From Candidatus Altiarchaeales archaeon (lineage in GTDB: Archaea; Altiarchaeota; Altiarchaeia; IMC4; QMZM01): a DNA stretch of 64,000 nucleotides. The notes beneath the pieces are model-generated. The model worked only from the letters and a program-made list of their open reading frames with translations. It was not told the origin of the DNA and ran no database searches. The stretch covers positions 16,414 through 80,413 of the forward strand of contig CAVVMY010000016.1 of the NCBI GenBank assembly GCA_963749405.1, in the 5' to 3' direction. Within the stretch, counting starts at the first letter, position 1. Every line of letters starts with the position of its first letter. The translations under genes and the position numbers were made by a program. Below are positions 3,517 to 57,220 of the stretch, one piece after another.

Positions 3517-4154
3517 TCAAAGTAAAGATATGCGGATTAACGAACGCCGATGATGCGTTATTCGCAGCCTCTGCCGGGGCTGATGCAGTCGGCATAGTGA
3601 ATGTGCCGGAATCCAAAAGATACGTAAAACTATATGCCGCAAGAGAGATATTCAAAGCAATGCCGCCGTTCGTTTCCAGGGTGCTGGTCGCATCCCCCAC
3701 AAAAATAAGCGATGTAAAAGAGATCGAGCGAATCGGCGCAGAGTACATACAGCTGCACGGAGATGAGGACATAATGTTCGTTAAGGAGATTCGCGAAAGC
3801 ACGCGCCTCAGGCTCATAAAACAGATAGCTGTAACTGGAAAAGAAAGCATCACGGAAGCTGAGGCCTATGCAGGCATCGTCGACGCAATACTCCTGGACA
3901 CTAAAACAAAAGACGGCTTAGGAGGAACCGGGCAGTTGCATGACTGGAAAATCAGCAGGGAAATCGCGCAGCGAGTAAAGAAGCCAGTCATCCTCGCAGG
4001 CGGGCTGAATTGCGGAAACGTGCTGGACGCGATCGGACGGGTGGCGCCTTACGCTGTTGATGTTGCAAGCGGCGTAGAGATCTCGCCCGGGATAAAGGAT
4101 CGAAAAAAGATCGATGATTTCATAAAGAAGGTGAAGGCTTATGGGATTACCTGA
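3513..4154 (+). CDS. trpF: phosphoribosylanthranilate isomerase
   Basis: 213 aa starting [15 protein letters not shown]. Its start overlaps the trpC stop, which suggests translational coupling. Confidence 0.85.
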
Positions 4155-5332
4155 TAACAGAGGAAAGTATGGCGTATACGGCGGACGCTTTTCTCCTGAG
4201 GTATTGATGCCTGCGCTCTTTGAACTGGAAACCGCATTCAAAAGATACGTAAAGGATGAAGAATTCCAAAAAGAGCTGGCATACTATCTGCGCGAATTTG
4301 CCGGAAGGCCTACGCCGCTTTATTATGCAAAGAACCTCTCGGAAAAACTTGGAGGCGCGAAGATATATCTCAAGAGGGAGGATCTTGTCCACGGCGGCGC
4401 GCATAAGCTTAACAGCACGCTTGGGCAGGCGCTCCTTGCAAAGAAGATGGGGAAGAAGAGGGTCATAGCCGAGACAGGCGCGGGCCAGCACGGAGTTGCT
4501 ACTGCTATTGCTGCGGCCACGTTGGGTCTTAAATGCGAGGTCTACATGGGCACAGAGGATACCGTCAGACAGAAGCTGAACGTCTTTCGCATGAACCTCA
4601 TGGATGCCCGAGTAATACCTGTTGATTCGGGTTCGAAAACGCTCAAAGACGCGACCAACGAAGCATTCAGGGACTGGATAGCAAACATCGACGACACATA
4701 CTACCTCATAGGAAGCGTTATGGGGCCTCACCCTTATCCCATGATAGTCAAGGAGTTCCAGAAGGTCATAGGCATAGAAACAAAGAAACAGAATCCTTGA
4801 AAAGGAAGGAAAACTCCCTGAGGTCATCATGGCCTGTGTAGGCGGAGGAAGCAACGCGATGGGGATATTCAATGCATTCAAGGAAGATACAGGAGTAGAG
4901 CTATGCGGAGTGGAAGCCGGAGGCAAGGGAATAGAAACAGGAGAACATGGAGCGGCACTATGCGCGGGAACGAACGGAGTACTGCACGGCATGTACTCAA
5001 AGATACTCCAAGATAGATACGGACAGATAAAGGTCTCATACTCGATATCCGCAGGACTCGACTACCCGGGCGTCGGACCGGAGCTCTCTTACCTGGCAGG
5101 CGAAGGACGGGTGAAGCCGGTTTCAATAACTGACGCGGAAGCACTCGACGCATTCAAAACGCTAAGCAAGACAGAAGGAATAATGCCGGCGCTGGAATCC
5201 GCGCACGCAGTGGCGCAAGCCATAAAGACGGCACCCAAGATGAAGAAAAACGAAACCATAATCGTGAACCTCTCAGGCAGGGGAGACAAAGACGTGTTCA
5301 CGGTTGCAGAAGCCCTGGGGGTAAAACTATGA
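4141..5332 (+). CDS. trpB: tryptophan synthase beta chain, interrupted by +1 frameshift near 4792-4794
   Basis: ORFs 4141-4800 and 4829-5332 together give a full TrpB ([35 protein letters not shown] ... [11 protein letters not shown]). The sequence aaacagaATCCTTGAAAAGGAAGG reads [23 protein letters not shown] once one A is removed. Confidence 0.85.
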
Positions 5333-11810: not shown

Positions 11811-12176
11811 TTAACCGATTAATTTGAGATTTGATCCTTTTGGGTTCTTTTTCATTAGGTCCTTTATGGACATCATTTTTCCGCCTGTTTTCTCTATTTT
11901 CTTTTTGGCTTTTTCTGAGAATTTGTAGGCTGCTATGTTTATTTTGTGGTCTAGTTCTCCGTCTCCGAGAACCTTTCCAGGGACTACCACGGTTTCTCCG
12001 TCTTTGGTATACTTTGATAGCTTCCACATGTTCACTTCTCTTCTGTTCCTGCCGGACCTTGATAGCTCGTCTGCAAGAGTCCTCCATATCGCCGCGTCTT
12101 CCTTGTTCGCGGACTCTTTAAGCTCCCTTATCAAATCCAGCCTTGTGGGGTCTTCGTATTCAACAGTCCTTGGCAT
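11811..12176 (-). CDS. rpl18e: 50S ribosomal protein L18e (eL18)
   Basis: 121 aa with an eL18 pattern (PRTVEYEDPTRLDLIRELKE...). Confidence 0.85.
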   Translation of the reverse strand: MPRTVEYEDPTRLDLIRELKESANKEDAAIWRTLADELSRSGRNRREVNMWKLSKYTKDGETVVVPGKVLGDGELDHKINIAAYKFSEKAKKKIEKTGGKMMSIKDLMKKNPKGSNLKLIG

Positions 12177-12214: not shown

Positions 12215-12250
12215 TTCAGTGGTCCCAGGGGGACCACACTTCTTTCTTTT
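12215..12250 (-). promoter_or_regulatory. conserved tRNA-trailer hairpin element (copy 1 of 3)
   Basis: Plus strand reads TTCAGTGG-TCCCAGGGGGA-CCACACTTCTTTCTTTT. The same CAGTGG-hairpin-CCAC(A)CTTCTTTTGCC core occurs at 15145-15178 and 54922-54957, each time between a minus-strand tRNA and the TATA region of the next minus-strand gene. Confidence 0.5.
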
Positions 12251-12286
12251 TTCCGTCAACGCTTTTTTCTTTCTTCCCAAGAAAGA

Positions 12287-12359
12287 AAAAAGGGTTGCGG
12301 GGGACGAGCTTCGAACTCGCGCAGACCTTCGTCACACGACCCTCAATCGTGCCCCTTTA
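12287..12359 (-). tRNA. tRNA-Leu(GAG)-like gene with aberrant or deleted D-arm (possible pseudo-tRNA)
   Basis: Minus strand reads GCGGTGG-GC-TAAAGGGG-[CACGA TTGAGGG TCGTG]-TGACGAAGGTCTGC-[GCGAG TTCGAAG CTCGT]-CCCCCGC-A. It has a perfect anticodon arm (anticodon GAG), a canonical T-arm and an acceptor stem with one mismatch. Only about 10 nt lie between acceptor and anticodon stem, so there is no D-arm. A TTAAAAA TATA-like box sits about 25 nt upstream. Confidence 0.4.
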
Positions 12360-12444
12360 GCCCACCGCGTCCCAATTTGAATATGAATAGGGGGTTTTTA
12401 AGACGCCTGTGTTTGGCCAGACTCGGGCACCCCCGCGTGTGTAT

Positions 12445-13053
12445 TTATTTTTTTATTGCTTCTTTGAGGTCTTCGATTTTTTTGTTGAATATGTCGAATG
12501 CGCTGTCTATTAGTTCTGGTAGTTCTAGTTGGTTGAATGTTTCTATGAAGTAGTCGAAGCTTCCGTCTTCTTTTTGTTCGTATGATGCTAGGCCGGCTTG
12601 CCATTTCATGTGTTTTTTGCCTGTGCCTAGTTCTGCTCTTGCTTCGAATTTTATGCTTTGTTCTGGTGTGATTTTTGCTATGGGTATTTTGTCGTGTACT
12701 GGCGTTATTTCCGGGTCTGTGGATTTTAGTTCTCCTGAGTATACTGTGCCTGGGCCTTTCATGTCTAGGGTGAGTGTGACTGTGCATTTTGCGCATCCTT
12801 TGCCTTTGCATGTGCATTCTTCTACGGTGTTGTAGGTTTTTAGGTCTGTTTTTATCGGCGTCAGGCCGAGCCGTAGTGAGAGTATTTCGTCGTTTAGTAT
12901 GGACGAGTTCTCGTAGTAGGTCACGGACTCTATTGCCATCGTCGGTATTTCTGATATGACGATGCGTCTTAGCGCGTTTGCCAGGGCCAGGTCCAGTCCT
13001 GAGACATTGAACCTTACCTTGTTTTCCGTTGCTTCGATTATGTTTAATTTCAT
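12445..13053 (-). CDS. rpoD: DNA-directed RNA polymerase subunit D (Rpo3)
   Basis: 202 aa with LALANALRRIVISEIPTMAIE and a Cys-containing insert (CTCKGKGCAKC). Conserved position upstream of S11/S4/S13. Confidence 0.8.
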   Translation of the reverse strand: MKLNIIEATENKVRFNVSGLDLALANALRRIVISEIPTMAIESVTYYENSSILNDEILSLRLGLTPIKTDLKTYNTVEECTCKGKGCAKCTVTLTLDMKGPGTVYSGELKSTDPEITPVHDKIPIAKITPEQSIKFEARAELGTGKKHMKWQAGLASYEQKEDGSFDYFIETFNQLELPELIDSAFDIFNKKIEDLKEAIKK

Positions 13054-13080: not shown

Positions 13081-13746
13081 TTATACTCTTCGACCTCTTT
13101 TGCCGCCTTTGGGTCTGCATCCGCCGAATGGCAGGGGTGTTACGTCTTCGATTCTTCCGATGACTAGGCCGCTTCTGGATATTGCTCTTATCGCTGATTG
13201 GGCTCCTTTGCCGGGGTATCTTGGTCCGTTGTGTCCGCCTGGGGCCCGGACTTTTATGTGTAGGCCGGTTATTCCTTTGTCTTTTATGTCTTCTGCTATT
13301 CTTAATGCGGCCTGCATTGCTGCGTAGGGCGATGCTTCTTCTCTCTGGGCTTTGACCATCATGCCTCCTGATTTGATGCTCAGAGTCTCGGAGCCTGTTA
13401 TATCGGTTACGTGCAGGATTGTATTATTCTTGGATGAGTAGATATGCAGTACGCCCCATAGCTCTTTGAATTTTCTGATCTGAGGCGCCCCTGCGGGAAT
13501 GACTTCTGTTGTCGCTCCTGTCTGAGGTGTTGTGGCTTCTTCGGTTTTGACTTCTTCTGAGGCGGCGGTTTCTTCTGTTTTTGTCTTTTCTTTTTTCTTT
13601 GTTTTTGACTTGTCTTCTTTTGATTCCTTGGATTCTTCTATTGGCTGAGTAGTGGCTACTGCCTTCTTTTTTGAATCTGATTTGCCCTCTTCTGTTTCCT
13701 TATCCTGCTTCTTTCGGGGCTTCTTTTGCTTGGCTTCCTTCTCCAA
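13081..13746 (-). CDS. rps11: 30S ribosomal protein S11 (uS11) with Lys/Glu-rich N-terminal extension
   Basis: C-terminal 130 aa is canonical uS11 ([22 protein letters not shown]...[11 protein letters not shown]...). The ATG-defined ORF adds an 85 aa K/E-rich N-terminus and overlaps the S4 stop by 47 nt. The true start may be downstream or non-ATG. Confidence 0.8.
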
Positions 13747-14260: not shown

Positions 14261-14947
14261 TTATTCTTTCTTTGGCTTATCGGCTGCTGGTGCTGCTTTC
14301 GGCGCCGCTGCGGGTGCTGCCGTCTTGGCTGCGCCTCCGGCTGCCTTCGGCGCTGCGGCTGCTGCCGCTGCTGCTTGGGCTGTTTTCTTCCTGCTGACGC
14401 CTATAGCGCTTCCAGTCCTAAACGAGGTTCTTGTCCTCTGCCCTCGGACAGGTAAGCCTAGTATGTGTCTTACGCCCTTGTATGATTTTATCCTCTTTTG
14501 CCGGGTAATGTCTTCTCTTTGGGATATTTCCAGCTCGGAACCGGTTAGGTGCAGGTTTTCTCCGGTAACGTAATCCCTCTGCCGGTTGGTCATCCAGTAA
14601 GGGATTTTCTTATTGAGAGTCATGATGTTATCTTCGATTTTCGTTATTTCTTCTTCTGTGAGGCCTCCAAGCTTCACCTCTTTTCCTATGCCCATTATGA
14701 GCAGCATTGCCTGCGTAGTATTCTGGCCTATGCCCCGGATCTTGGGCAGAACCCTGTAGACTTCCTTGTTTCCGTCCAATACGACGCCGGACACCCTGAC
14801 CAGCTGCCTGAAATTAGAATCAACCTTCTTTTCCTCGGCCTTCTTCTCAGGGGGCTTCCCGGGGTGAACTGGTTTCTTATCCGGCTGCTTCTCTGGCTTC
14901 TTTTCTACCTTCTCGTCGACTTTGGGTGCTCCTTCCTTTTTTTCCAT
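14261..14947 (-). CDS. rps13: 30S ribosomal protein S13 (uS13) with K/E-rich N-terminal and Ala/Pro/Lys-rich C-terminal low-complexity tails
   Basis: Core FRQLVRVSGVVLDGNKEV...GIGQNT...KGVRHILGLPVRGQRTRT is uS13. Start is chosen at the internal Met (MEKKEG, 14947) because the longer ORF to 15070 runs into the tRNA-trailer hairpins. C-terminus is AAAAAAAAPKAAGGAAKTAAPAAAPKAAPAADKPKKE. Confidence 0.8.
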   Translation of the reverse strand: MEKKEGAPKVDEKVEKKPEKQPDKKPVHPGKPPEKKAEEKKVDSNFRQLVRVSGVVLDGNKEVYRVLPKIRGIGQNTTQAMLLIMGIGKEVKLGGLTEEEITKIEDNIMTLNKKIPYWMTNRQRDYVTGENLHLTGSELEISQREDITRQKRIKSYKGVRHILGLPVRGQRTRTSFRTGSAIGVSRKKTAQAAAAAAAAPKAAGGAAKTAAPAAAPKAAPAADKPKKE

Positions 14948-15144
14948 TCTAAAGAGTCTTAAGTTATGGTACTCAGTCTTTATAAGCCAGCGCAGCGCAT
15001 CACACCACTCTATAGAAAAAACTTCCACAGACGGGAAAACGCCCTCGCCAGCCCAAAAAGACTGACTCAACCTCGAAGAATATTATAATGTATTAGGTCA
15101 TTAAAAATACTCCCAGCCTTCAAAACCAACCAATTCCCTCCCCT

Positions 15145-15241: not shown

Positions 15242-15329
15242 CGCCGAGGATGAGATTCGAACTCATGACCCCCTCGCGGAGAACGGGCTCTCAAGGCCCG
15301 CGCGTTAAACCGTGCTCTGCCACCTCGGC
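15242..15329 (-). tRNA. tRNA-Ser(TGA), class II with long variable arm
   Basis: 88 nt. Perfect acceptor stem GCCGAGG/CCTCGGC plus discriminator G. Anticodon arm is CGGGC-CTTGAGA-GCCCG (anticodon TGA). T-arm is ATGAG-TTCGAAT-CTCAT. A long variable arm is present. Confidence 0.8.
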
Positions 15330-15470
15330 ACCTGTAATGAACGTGAGTGCCGAGATGCCGACATTCGTCGTCACCTCGGCGTTGTGAATGAACATGAACA
15401 ACGCTGAGACGCCCGACCCGTAGGTCGGCTGCGCCTCGGCGTTGTGAATGAGGAGTGCGTTATATTCGCG
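15320..15470. repeat. three tandem imperfect copies (period about 50-57 bp) of the tRNA-Ser 5' end plus its upstream sequence
   Basis: C(A/G)CCTCGGC(A/G)(C/T)(C/T)GT(A/G)AATGA(A/G) recurs at about 15320, 15371 and 15428. Only the first copy is attached to the complete tRNA. A CGACCCGTAGGTCGG hairpin lies between copies 2 and 3. Confidence 0.5.
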
Positions 15471-56017: not shown

Positions 56018-56491
56018 TTATTCACCTTCGCCCCTTATGTAGCCGGTTTCTGTGTGCATTGTGGTGTATCCAGCCAGGCTCGAGTTGTAGGTTATTATAA
56101 TCATCATATTGTATGCAGCACCGGTTATCACCGAGGGACAGGTCGTACCTGCAAGGTTGAACACCCCACCCGCCATAACAGGGGCTGAGGGAACTACTAA
56201 GGTAGTACAATTAACGCCGTTAATCGTCTCATTCATGATCACAGTCATTAGTCTTATAGGCGCACCTACGTTATTCGTGAAAGTCGCGTTAAAGGCCGTA
56301 GTCTTATACACAACGCTCGGCATCAAAGGATTCAACCTGACGAAACCAGTCCCTACCGGGGCTCCCTGTCCTGAATTGAAGACCCCAAGCTGCCATAGGA
56401 CTACACCAACTATCATAACGACGAGTATTGCCCATCCATAGGTCATCAGATACTCCATAGCACCCTGACCCTTGTTTCCTAGATATTCCAT
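56018..56491 (-). CDS. class III signal peptide pilin-like protein (copy A)
   Basis: MEYLGNKGQGAMEYLMTYGWAILVVMIVGVVLWQLGVFNSGQ..., 157 aa. Confidence 0.7.
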   Translation of the reverse strand: MEYLGNKGQGAMEYLMTYGWAILVVMIVGVVLWQLGVFNSGQGAPVGTGFVRLNPLMPSVVYKTTAFNATFTNNVGAPIRLMTVIMNETINGVNCTTLVVPSAPVMAGGVFNLAGTTCPSVITGAAYNMMIIITYNSSLAGYTTMHTETGYIRGEGE

Positions 56492-56746: not shown

Positions 56747-57220
56747 TTATTCACCTTCGCCCCTTATGTAGCCGGTTTCTGTGTGCATTGTGGTGTATCC
56801 AGCCAGGCTCGAGTTGTAGGTTATTATAATCATCATATTGTATGCAGCACCGGTTATCACCGAGGGACAGGTCGTACCTGCAAGGTTGAACACCCCACCC
56901 GCCATAACAGGGGCTGAGGGAACTACTAAGGTAGTACAATTAACGCCGTTAATCGTCTCATTCATGATCACAGTCATTAGTCTTATAGGCGCACCTACGT
57001 TATTCGTGAAAGTCGCGTTAAAGGCCGTAGTCTTATACACAACGCTCGGCATCAAAGGATTCAACCTGACGAAACCAGTCTCTACCGGGGCTCCCTGTCC
57101 TGAATTGAAGACCCCAAGCTGCCATAGGACTACACCAACTATCATAACGACGAGTATTGCCCATCCATAGGTCATCAGATACTCCATAGCACCCTGACCC
57201 TTGTTTCCTAAGTATTTCAT
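56747..57220 (-). CDS. class III signal peptide pilin-like protein (copy B)
   Basis: 98-99% identical to copy A (MKYLGNKGQGAMEYL...). Confidence 0.7.
   Translation of the reverse strand: MKYLGNKGQGAMEYLMTYGWAILVVMIVGVVLWQLGVFNSGQGAPVETGFVRLNPLMPSVVYKTTAFNATFTNNVGAPIRLMTVIMNETINGVNCTTLVVPSAPVMAGGVFNLAGTTCPSVITGAAYNMMIIITYNSSLAGYTTMHTETGYIRGEGE

Follow-up and report, generated by a model that had tools for sequence, protein, structure and literature searches.

Two 3-nt bulges enclosing a 4-bp helix make up the bulge-helix-bulge (BHB) splicing motif of archaea (PMC7714728, PMC6379350), which also bounds tRNA introns outside the canonical 37/38 site. [quoted passage not shown] Pre-tRNA-Glu(UUC) of Methanopyrus kandleri has a D-loop intron at 20b/21 (PMC5829648), and in Thermoproteales, Crenarchaeota and Nanoarchaeota BHB-bounded introns outside 37/38 (20/21, 22/23, 25/26 and others) are missed by standard tRNA finders and are gained and lost among close relatives (PMC4090602). 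Here, we describe an arrangement of this kind in a 64,000-nt stretch of DNA from Candidatus Altiarchaeales archaeon (assembly GCA_963749405.1, contig CAVVMY010000016.1, positions 16,414 to 80,413 of the forward strand; in the following, the window). The minus-strand segment 12296-12436 is very probably a functional tRNA-Leu(GAG) gene, the D-loop of which is interrupted by a 56-nt archaeal protein-spliced intron. BHB introns as a class are known in archaea; here, one is documented for Altiarchaeota, and in this phylum it is of old age and wide distribution and has been lost repeatedly.

The intron site, 21/22 in our own numbering, is nearly identical to 20b/21 in M. kandleri, where a canonical intron co-occurs with the D-loop intron as it does in the loci L003, L005, L029 and L034 described below (PMC5829648). 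In contrast to the relaxed HBh' motif of M. kandleri, a strict 3-4-3 BHB is found here in every sequence. Unlike A. pernix, where a different tRNA of a single species is concerned, the Altiarchaeota intron resides in a phylum-wide syntenic gene. The introns of Thermoproteales, Crenarchaeota and Nanoarchaeota affect many tRNAs, often with relaxed motifs and with evidence of intron transposition, whereas one tRNA gene and one site are documented here.

The original prediction had taken positions 12287-12359 for a tRNA-Leu(GAG)-like gene of about 73 nt lacking a D-arm. Searching for T-arms accompanied, at a distance of at most 400 nt, by an acceptor strand of perfect complementarity returned the window's two ordinary tRNAs and a 141-nt element, which is composed as follows:

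12296..12436, minus strand: complete interrupted tRNA-Leu(GAG) gene, 141 nt, with G1 at 12436 and discriminator A73 at 12296; CCA not encoded

12413..12436, minus strand: 5' exon, comprising the acceptor 5' strand GCGGGGG, U8 G9, the D-stem 5' strand CCC and the D-loop part GAGUCUGGCCAA; Sprinzl positions 1-21 (own assignment)

12296..12356, minus strand: 3' exon, Sprinzl positions 22-73, comprising the D-stem 3' strand, the anticodon, variable and T arms and the acceptor 3' strand; this is the element of the original prediction

12342..12344, minus strand: anticodon GAG, from ARAGORN on the spliced sequence

The identity as an archaeal tRNA-Leu(GAG) was correctly recognized; the anticodon lies at 12344-12342, and ARAGORN names the spliced 85-mer tRNA-Leu(gag). 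The anticodon arm with the loop UUGAGGG (CACGA/UUGAGGG/UCGUG), the variable stem-loop (GAC-GAAG-GUC) and the T-arm (GCGAG-UUCGAAG-CUCGU) are likewise all present on the minus strand, followed by the 3' acceptor strand CCCCCGC, the discriminator A (12296), ACCC and a T6 run. Of the proposed acceptor stem, the 3' strand CCCCCGC stands, whereas the supposed 5' strand GCGGUGG (12368-12362) lies inside the intron, even outside the interval 12287-12359, and leaves a U-C mismatch with CCCCCGC. In the close relatives L001-L004 it reads GCCGUGG or GUCGUGG, and in view of this variation we regard it as incidental, produced by the intron-side helix together with the BHB strand GGCU.

The acceptor 5' strand and the D-arm absent from the 73-nt element are located in GCGGGGGUGCCCGAGUCUGGCCAA, 56 nt further upstream. 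Here, GCGGGGG pairs with CCCCCGC at 7/7 positions, and the 5' exon agrees with uninterrupted orthologs except for variable D-loop positions (e.g., C20 versus their U). When the insert is deleted so that three A's are left, ARAGORN reports a complete cloverleaf for the resulting class-II tRNA-Leu(gag) of 85 nt; the intron length of 56 nt is the difference between 141 and 85. That a normal D-arm cannot form is consequently true of the truncated element only; after splicing, the D-arm is complete. A standard cloverleaf with a different boundary, the outcome which the original prediction had named as speaking against itself, is what both ARAGORN and a covariance model (see below) give once the intron is removed.

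In the minimum free energy (MFE) fold of the 141-mer, a 7-bp acceptor stem and the D-stem are formed, and a helix UGGCC/GGCUA extrudes from the D-loop; beyond it follow a 3-nt bulge on each strand, the pairs CAC/GUG and a 9-bp helix. The motif has the geometry of an archaeal BHB, with GGCC/GGCU flanked by an AAA bulge on either strand:

12357..12412, minus strand: BHB intron, 56 nt, A CAC AG GCGUCUUAA ... UUGGGACGC G GUG GGCU AA, between our Sprinzl positions 21 and 22

12415..12418, minus strand: 5' strand of the central BHB helix, GGCC (G18 G19 C20 C20a, exonic), pairing with GGCU at 12359-12362

12359..12362, minus strand: 3' strand of the central BHB helix, GGCU (intronic), from the MFE fold and ortholog comparison

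12412..12414, minus strand: 5' bulge AAA, unpaired in the MFE fold, with the predicted 5' splice site after its second nucleotide

12356..12358, minus strand: 3' bulge AAA, from the MFE fold, with the predicted 3' splice site after its second nucleotide

12398..12411, minus strand: 5' strand of the intron-side helix h', with CAC (12411-12409), an AG bulge and GCGUCUUAA (12406-12398), from the MFE fold

12363..12375, minus strand: 3' strand of h', with UUGGGACGC (12375-12367), G and GUG (12365-12363), overlapping GCGGUGG at 12368-12362

12390..12394, minus strand: CCCCC run in the intron terminal loop (within ACCCCCU), unpaired in the MFE fold

The same D-loop intron is common to 51 loci, among which 39 distinct introns range from 31 to 80 nt and have a median of 56 nt, the length found in the window; a metagenome scan with the 3' junction pattern contributed 27 complete examples to this set. 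All follow the junction formula exon ...N3, GGYC, AAA or AAU, CA(C/U/A)... ...(G/A/U)UG, GRCY, A(A/G/U)A, GGG... exon. Covariation was assessed in 30 distinct junction constructs with the variable loop trimmed. Here, 93.9% of cells were paired, compared to 50-54% when the 3' partners were slid by one column, and the covariation score reached 0.316 versus 0.202 ± 0.015 in shuffles. Pairing in the central helix is complete (100%), the exchanges being G-U/G-C and U-G/C-G/U-A, and both bulges measure 3 nt throughout. The first four pairs of h' are 90.8% paired, with longer helices in the folds, and its third pair shows compensatory changes (C-G 16, U-A 8, A-U 4, U-G 2). The exons covary as well: in interrupted genes, the anticodon stem reads CACGG/CCGUG in 30 cases, CACGA/UCGUG in 11 including the window, and UACGG/CCGUA in one.

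As a rule, EndA cleaves after the second nucleotide of each bulge. In the first bulge, nucleotides 1 and 2 are invariant A and nucleotide 3 is A or U; in the second, nucleotide 2 is A, G or U and nucleotide 3 is invariant A. The bulge nucleotides which would be retained in the tRNA are hence invariant while the others vary, which supports this cleavage rule. By the same rule, the intron would span 12412-12357 between A21 and A22 and the exons 12436-12413 and 12356-12296.

Conservation is also seen in the terminal loop, where a CCCCC run at its start occurs in 22 of the 39 distinct introns and in deep Altiarchaeota branches, with the rest of the loop diverged. In the window, ACCCCCU is the complement both of G3-U8 in the acceptor strand and of the AGGGG located at the 3' splice site. 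Some folds (L004 and L019 constructs) have the run capturing the GGGG of exon 2, and in a few lineages it pairs with a downstream intronic G-run (L025 and L107 by inspection, in agreement with the L025 construct fold). The C-rich loop may give the intron a second role, e.g., as a folding checkpoint or as a stable circular RNA. A C/D-box guide RNA within the intron was considered and rejected, with a C box in 0/39 introns and CUGA in only 2/39.

For comparison, an RpoD alignment was used to collect 80 loci from one-genome-per-species contigs, and the region after rpoD was examined. tRNA-Leu(GAG) follows rpoD in 41 Altiarchaeota and related loci, and thus in almost all loci of Altiarchaeota, in four configurations:

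Uninterrupted gene (83-86 nt), 13 loci: L011, L014-L018, L020 (IMC4), L024, L026, L028, L030, L035 and L048

Insert at the D-loop site: the window plus 19 loci

D-loop insert together with a canonical 37/38 intron: L003, L005, L029 and L034, and also L044 (Woesearchaeota)

Canonical intron only: L012, L023 and L031

L025 and L026 are sisters in an RpoD neighbour-joining tree and share the mature D-loop sequence GGUCAAAGGGGC, the former with and the latter without the insert. ARAGORN recognizes uninterrupted orthologs as tRNA-Leu(gag) and misses interrupted ones. In L025, however, it calls a truncated 79-nt tRNA-Leu(gag) at 4657-4735, the start of which falls within the D-loop intron (GCGGGGACG...). 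The original prediction made the same boundary error, and automated annotation can therefore yield bogus short tRNAs here.

The Rfam model RF00005 misses intact orthologs too (e.g., L026 4620-4703), even at E ≤ 1 on a 351-nt slice, and for this reason we built a covariance model of our own from the 13 uninterrupted orthologs only, with cloverleaf structure and 84 positions. It matches the window gene over positions 1-84 of 84 with 85.9 bits (E 4.7e-17), well above what chance would give; all 23 model pairs are standard, and a single 58-nt run replaces two D-loop positions. Over 44 sources the model returned one match each, full-length at the syntenic site, with three exceptions: the match in L001 is shorter and begins within the intron, that in L036 is truncated where the contig ends, and L005 has none at E ≤ 1e-9. 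As a side observation, the gap of RF00005 on intact class-II tRNA-Leu(GAG) genes, which ARAGORN and our model do detect, calls for caution wherever the lack of an Rfam hit serves as evidence.

A further observation concerns L044 of the Woesearchaeota, where the tRNA-Leu(GAG) downstream of rpoD (4802-4917) carries, besides its canonical intron, one of 17 nt at the same D-loop site. The junction reads GGCC AAA CCU-UUCG-AGG GGCU AUA, with a UUCG loop, showing that the D-loop site is also used outside Altiarchaeota. We found no report of tRNA introns in Altiarchaeota in the literature, where papers on "introns" in this phylum were judged mostly by their titles.

Based on this architecture, maturation could proceed as follows. 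With no more than 8 nt between the stop codon of rpoD and G1, the tRNA is probably transcribed together with the rpoD operon. In the precursor, G18-G19-C20-C20a of the D-loop would pair with GGCU close to where the intron ends, giving the BHB its 4-bp central helix with a 3-nt AAA bulge on each strand, and the intron would close via the long helix consisting of CAC/GUG and GCGUCUUAA/UUGGGACGC. EndA would then cut after the second nucleotide of both bulges, which would fix the exact phosphodiester bonds, and an RtcB-type ligase, near-universal in Archaea, would join the exons to the 85-nt class-II tRNA. The intron would be released, possibly as a circle as in other archaea, and CCA would be added after exon joining, as it is not encoded.

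A candidate for the cleaving enzyme is present in the phylum. A tblastn search with an EndA sequence of Methanocaldococcus jannaschii, used as a probe only, matched one open reading frame (ORF), L003:7389-7916 on the minus strand, at a locus whose tRNA-Leu has both introns. The encoded protein contains the Pfam domains PF01974 and PF02778, and a PDB search gives the alpha4 homotetramer 1A79 as its closest solved relative, with E 5e-36 and an essentially gap-free alignment. Its best 120 homologs in the database each consist of a single unit of 165-205 aa, the named ones from Altiarchaeota or Methanobacteriota; they apparently include proteins of L019 and L037, which have the D-loop intron, and of IMC4/L020, which lacks it. 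The catalytic Tyr/His/Lys residues are invariant in the alignment. Only a single alpha-type subunit was seen, next to which a separate beta-type paralog could exist.

Several observations weigh against an intron removed in this way. Excision of the insert in this organism is a prediction from the sequence. The unspliced gene gave no match at the locus with ARAGORN or RF00005 on the raw window, of which the Rfam silence is uninformative because RF00005 also misses intact orthologs. In the strict hBHBh' form of the motif, the bulges are fixed by flanking helices on the exon side (h) and the intron side (h'). The exon-side helix h (UCU/GGG in the window) has only 2-3 pairs, mostly G-U or C-G; it is 90% paired, mostly with one-sided variation, and it competes with the D-stem. 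With tblastn no EndA was found in the 64-kb window, and an RtcB gene, for which no search was made, is not seen there either, so that a host EndA is documented for the phylum and not for this metagenome-assembled genome (MAG). Moreover, the Altiarchaeota enzyme most resembles the narrow-specificity alpha4 enzyme of M. jannaschii, relative to which the alignment shows no insertion at all, the reported specificity-loop sites included, and wild-type alpha'2 EndA of Archaeoglobus fulgidus, likewise of the narrow type, "hardly cleaved" the A. pernix D-loop BHB intron in vitro (PMC3241643).

In other archaea, efficient removal of D-loop or relaxed introns accompanies the inserted loops L1/CSL (Crenarchaea-specific loop), L2/ASL and L3 (PMC3241643, PMC5829648). 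The (alpha-beta)2 EndA of the crenarchaeon A. pernix has the Crenarchaea-specific loop, which is needed for efficient D-loop cleavage (PMC3241643), whereas the alpha4-like enzyme of Altiarchaeota is devoid of it; the CSL-equivalent site GEEKGKRHE has the same length as AFU GSEKGDLVT and is without a conserved Lys. Together, the loop-dependence elsewhere and the loop-less EndA make the situation in Altiarchaeota mildly unexpected. A parallel is offered by M. kandleri, the EndA of which is without specificity loops as well (PMC5829648), although it forms an (alpha-beta)2 heterotetramer, unlike the single alpha-type subunit seen here. The loop-less enzyme may explain why the 3-4-3 motif is so strictly kept. 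A more far-reaching proposal, namely that this phylum-wide D-loop intron goes together with a plain alpha4 homotetrameric EndA without L1/L2/L3 and without a beta subunit, and that the C-rich loop has a second role in addition, appears rather unlikely to us at this stage. If true, it would provide a counter-example from nature to the rule by which introns outside the anticodon loop are removed exclusively by EndA of the loop-bearing (alpha-beta)2 or epsilon2 types.

Among the alternatives to a protein-spliced intron, the one faring best is a non-spliced insertion, i.e., a small mobile element or one resembling a miniature inverted-repeat transposable element (MITE) which inactivates this copy while another tRNA-Leu(GAG) gene decodes. 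The 64 kb of the genome seen would leave room for a second copy, and certain words, (A/G)TTCA(Y) and C-runs, are found both in intron interiors and in further RNA segments that are removed in these genomes. Nevertheless, we consider it very unlikely, as the site is base-identical in 51 loci and always forms a 3-4-3 BHB restoring the exact mature sequence, the exons are under structural selection, and the syntenic slot holds an uninterrupted gene in relatives. As for the second tRNA-Leu(GAG) that the original prediction had asked about, our covariance model gave no second match within the window.

Split tRNAs, as described for Nanoarchaeum equitans and Caldivirga, resemble the present gene in that a discontinuous tRNA body is reassembled via a BHB-like structure cut by EndA (PMC4090602). 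A scenario of separately transcribed halves, with a promoter located in the insert and trans-joining as in N. equitans, could draw on a TATA-like CUUAAAAA stretch (UUAAAAA) in the insert and on the occurrence of split tRNAs in DPANN-type archaea (PMC4090602). In those organisms, however, the halves lie at separate loci with their own promoters, while here the two are encoded in cis on one strand with 56 nt between them, and the intron folds into a closed hairpin as would be expected of a cis intron. The TATA-like stretch is furthermore unconserved (e.g., in L010, L006 and L025), and a T5 run, a possible terminator of the 5' half, is found in only 4/39 introns and is absent from that of the window. 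Trans-joining is hence highly improbable; the earlier suggestion of an atypical, split or processed tRNA pointed in the right direction as to an atypical and processed molecule, while the 5' half lies in cis, 56 nt upstream, rather than being encoded separately.

A D-arm-less tRNA or pseudo-tRNA of about 73 nt starting at GCGGUGG, functional without a D-arm or dead, has hardly any probability left. It would account for the anticodon, variable and T arms contained in the 3' part alone, for the 6/7 acceptor pairing with GCGGUGG and for the truncated call by ARAGORN in L025. Against it stand the perfect acceptor strand and D-arm half upstream, the end-to-end match to uninterrupted orthologs and the fact that GCGGUGG is unconserved, while the upstream exon is kept in 51 loci and exon stems show compensatory changes; together with the standard model pairs, these changes across orthologs dispose of the pseudo-tRNA suggested earlier. 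An assembly artefact, either a loss of about 9 nt from the D-arm as had been proposed or a chimeric join, can practically be dismissed, as the D-arm is complete once both exons are read, and dozens of MAGs and metagenome contigs, each assembled independently, show the same architecture.

Group I introns of tRNA-Leu genes are at least 200 nt long, contain a group I core and reside in the anticodon loop. A self-splicing intron of this type was ruled out for the 56-nt insert in the D-loop, which has no match to an Rfam intron family.

The protein-spliced D-loop intron has practical consequences for annotation. In default mode, ARAGORN as well as RF00005 miss or mis-call the gene, and Altiarchaeota MAGs consequently seem to be without tRNA-Leu(GAG) or to carry a bogus truncated tRNA. 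To our knowledge, archaea decode CUC/CUU by tRNA-Leu(GAG) only. Kaneta et al. noted that tRNA sets are incomplete in new DPANN lineages and urged manual curation (PMC5829648); the present locus resolves one such case. How tRNA splicing in archaea is understood remains unaffected, while non-canonical tRNA introns are extended to Altiarchaeota with an old intron, its repeated loss and a sister pair differing only by the intron. This could serve as a natural test of D-loop BHB processing by a loop-less, alpha4-like endonuclease.

The gene is embedded in a conserved archaeal cluster with the order tRNA-Ser, S13, S4, S11, RpoD, tRNA-Leu, L18e, L13, S9, ..., RpoK, S2, in which ribosomal proteins are named from translations and gene order and database comparison refers to RpoD only. 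Read 5' to 3' on the minus strand, the locus follows the rpoD stop as AUACACAC-GCGGGGGUGCCCGAGUCUGGCCAAACACAGGCGUCUUAAAAACCCCCUAUUCAUAUUCAAAUUGGGACGCGGUGGGCUAAAGGGGCACGAUUGAGGGUCGUGUGACGAAGGUCUGCGCGAGUUCGAAGCUCGUCCCCCGCA-ACCCUUUUUU. Its surroundings comprise:

12445..13053, minus strand: rpoD (Rpo3), ORF with its stop codon ending 8 nt upstream of the tRNA; anchor of the synteny comparison

11811..12176, minus strand: downstream ORF, taken as ribosomal protein L18e from its translation and conserved gene order

12286..12291, minus strand: T6 run, 4 nt past the discriminator, read from the sequence

Homologs of RpoD (PF01000/PF01193) are named RNA polymerase subunit D of Altiarchaeota, and the window protein is 88-91% identical to those of MAGs named Candidatus Altiarchaeia/Altiarchaeales. 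Oligo-T termination is established in archaea, and the T6 run is a probable transcription stop. Directly past the tRNA-Leu 3' end, positions 12257-12294 form a perfect 13-bp AT-rich inverted repeat (UUUUUUCUUUCUU GGG AAGAAAGAAAAAA), which may act as a terminator hairpin between the tRNA and the L18e-like ORF. Low-score Rfam matches to miRNA and CopA families at 12219-12309 are spurious and accounted for by this AT-rich palindrome. Further upstream in the cluster, the S11-like ORF (13081-13746, minus strand) has a Lys/Glu-rich low-complexity N-terminus of about 90 aa, and the S13-like ORF (14261-15070, minus strand) has a Lys/Pro/Glu-rich N-terminal extension and an Ala/Pro/Lys-rich C-terminal tail.

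The syntenic tRNA-Ser(TGA) upstream of S13 is uninterrupted in the window (15242-15329) and has a canonical 37/38 intron of about 17-45 nt in L003, L004, L014-L019, L021-L025, L029, L030 and L048. Upstream of it, positions 15330-15440 on the minus strand belong to a leader with one to three hairpins, which is also present in L003, L004, L008, L009, L014, L017, L019, L020 and L024. These hairpins are "minihelix" mimics of the acceptor stem: the 5' arm copies the acceptor 5' strand (GCCGAGG...) and the 3' arm the 3' strand (...CCUC(G/A)GC). Their inner stems vary by locus and stay complementary (GCGAC/GUCGC, ACUAU/AUAGU, GAGGCAG/CUGCCUC), and the spacers are rich in (A/G)TTCA(Y). As far as we know, a long structured leader is unusual for an archaeal tRNA. 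Another conserved hairpin, UAGUCGGGC-loop-GCCCUUGACGAG, lies about 30-110 nt upstream of tRNA-Ser in L015, L016, L018, L019, L021, L022, L025, L026, L029 and L030; it is absent from the window, and the loci featuring it are mostly without minihelix hairpins, L019 having both. It might represent a putative protein-binding, perhaps kink-turn-like, element.

Two observations concern genes elsewhere in the window. In an apparent trp operon, trpB seems to be split into two adjacent plus-strand ORFs, 4141-4800 (219 aa) and 4829-5332 (167 aa), assigned by N-terminal residues and surrounding genes only; the split could be due to a frameshift, an in-frame stop or a genuine division of the gene. Finally, two tandem ORFs of 157 aa each on the minus strand (56018-56491 and 56747-57220) have nearly identical N-termini (M(E/K)YLGNKGQGAMEYLMTYGWAILVV...), which we take to resemble archaeal class III (type IV pilin-like) signal peptides.

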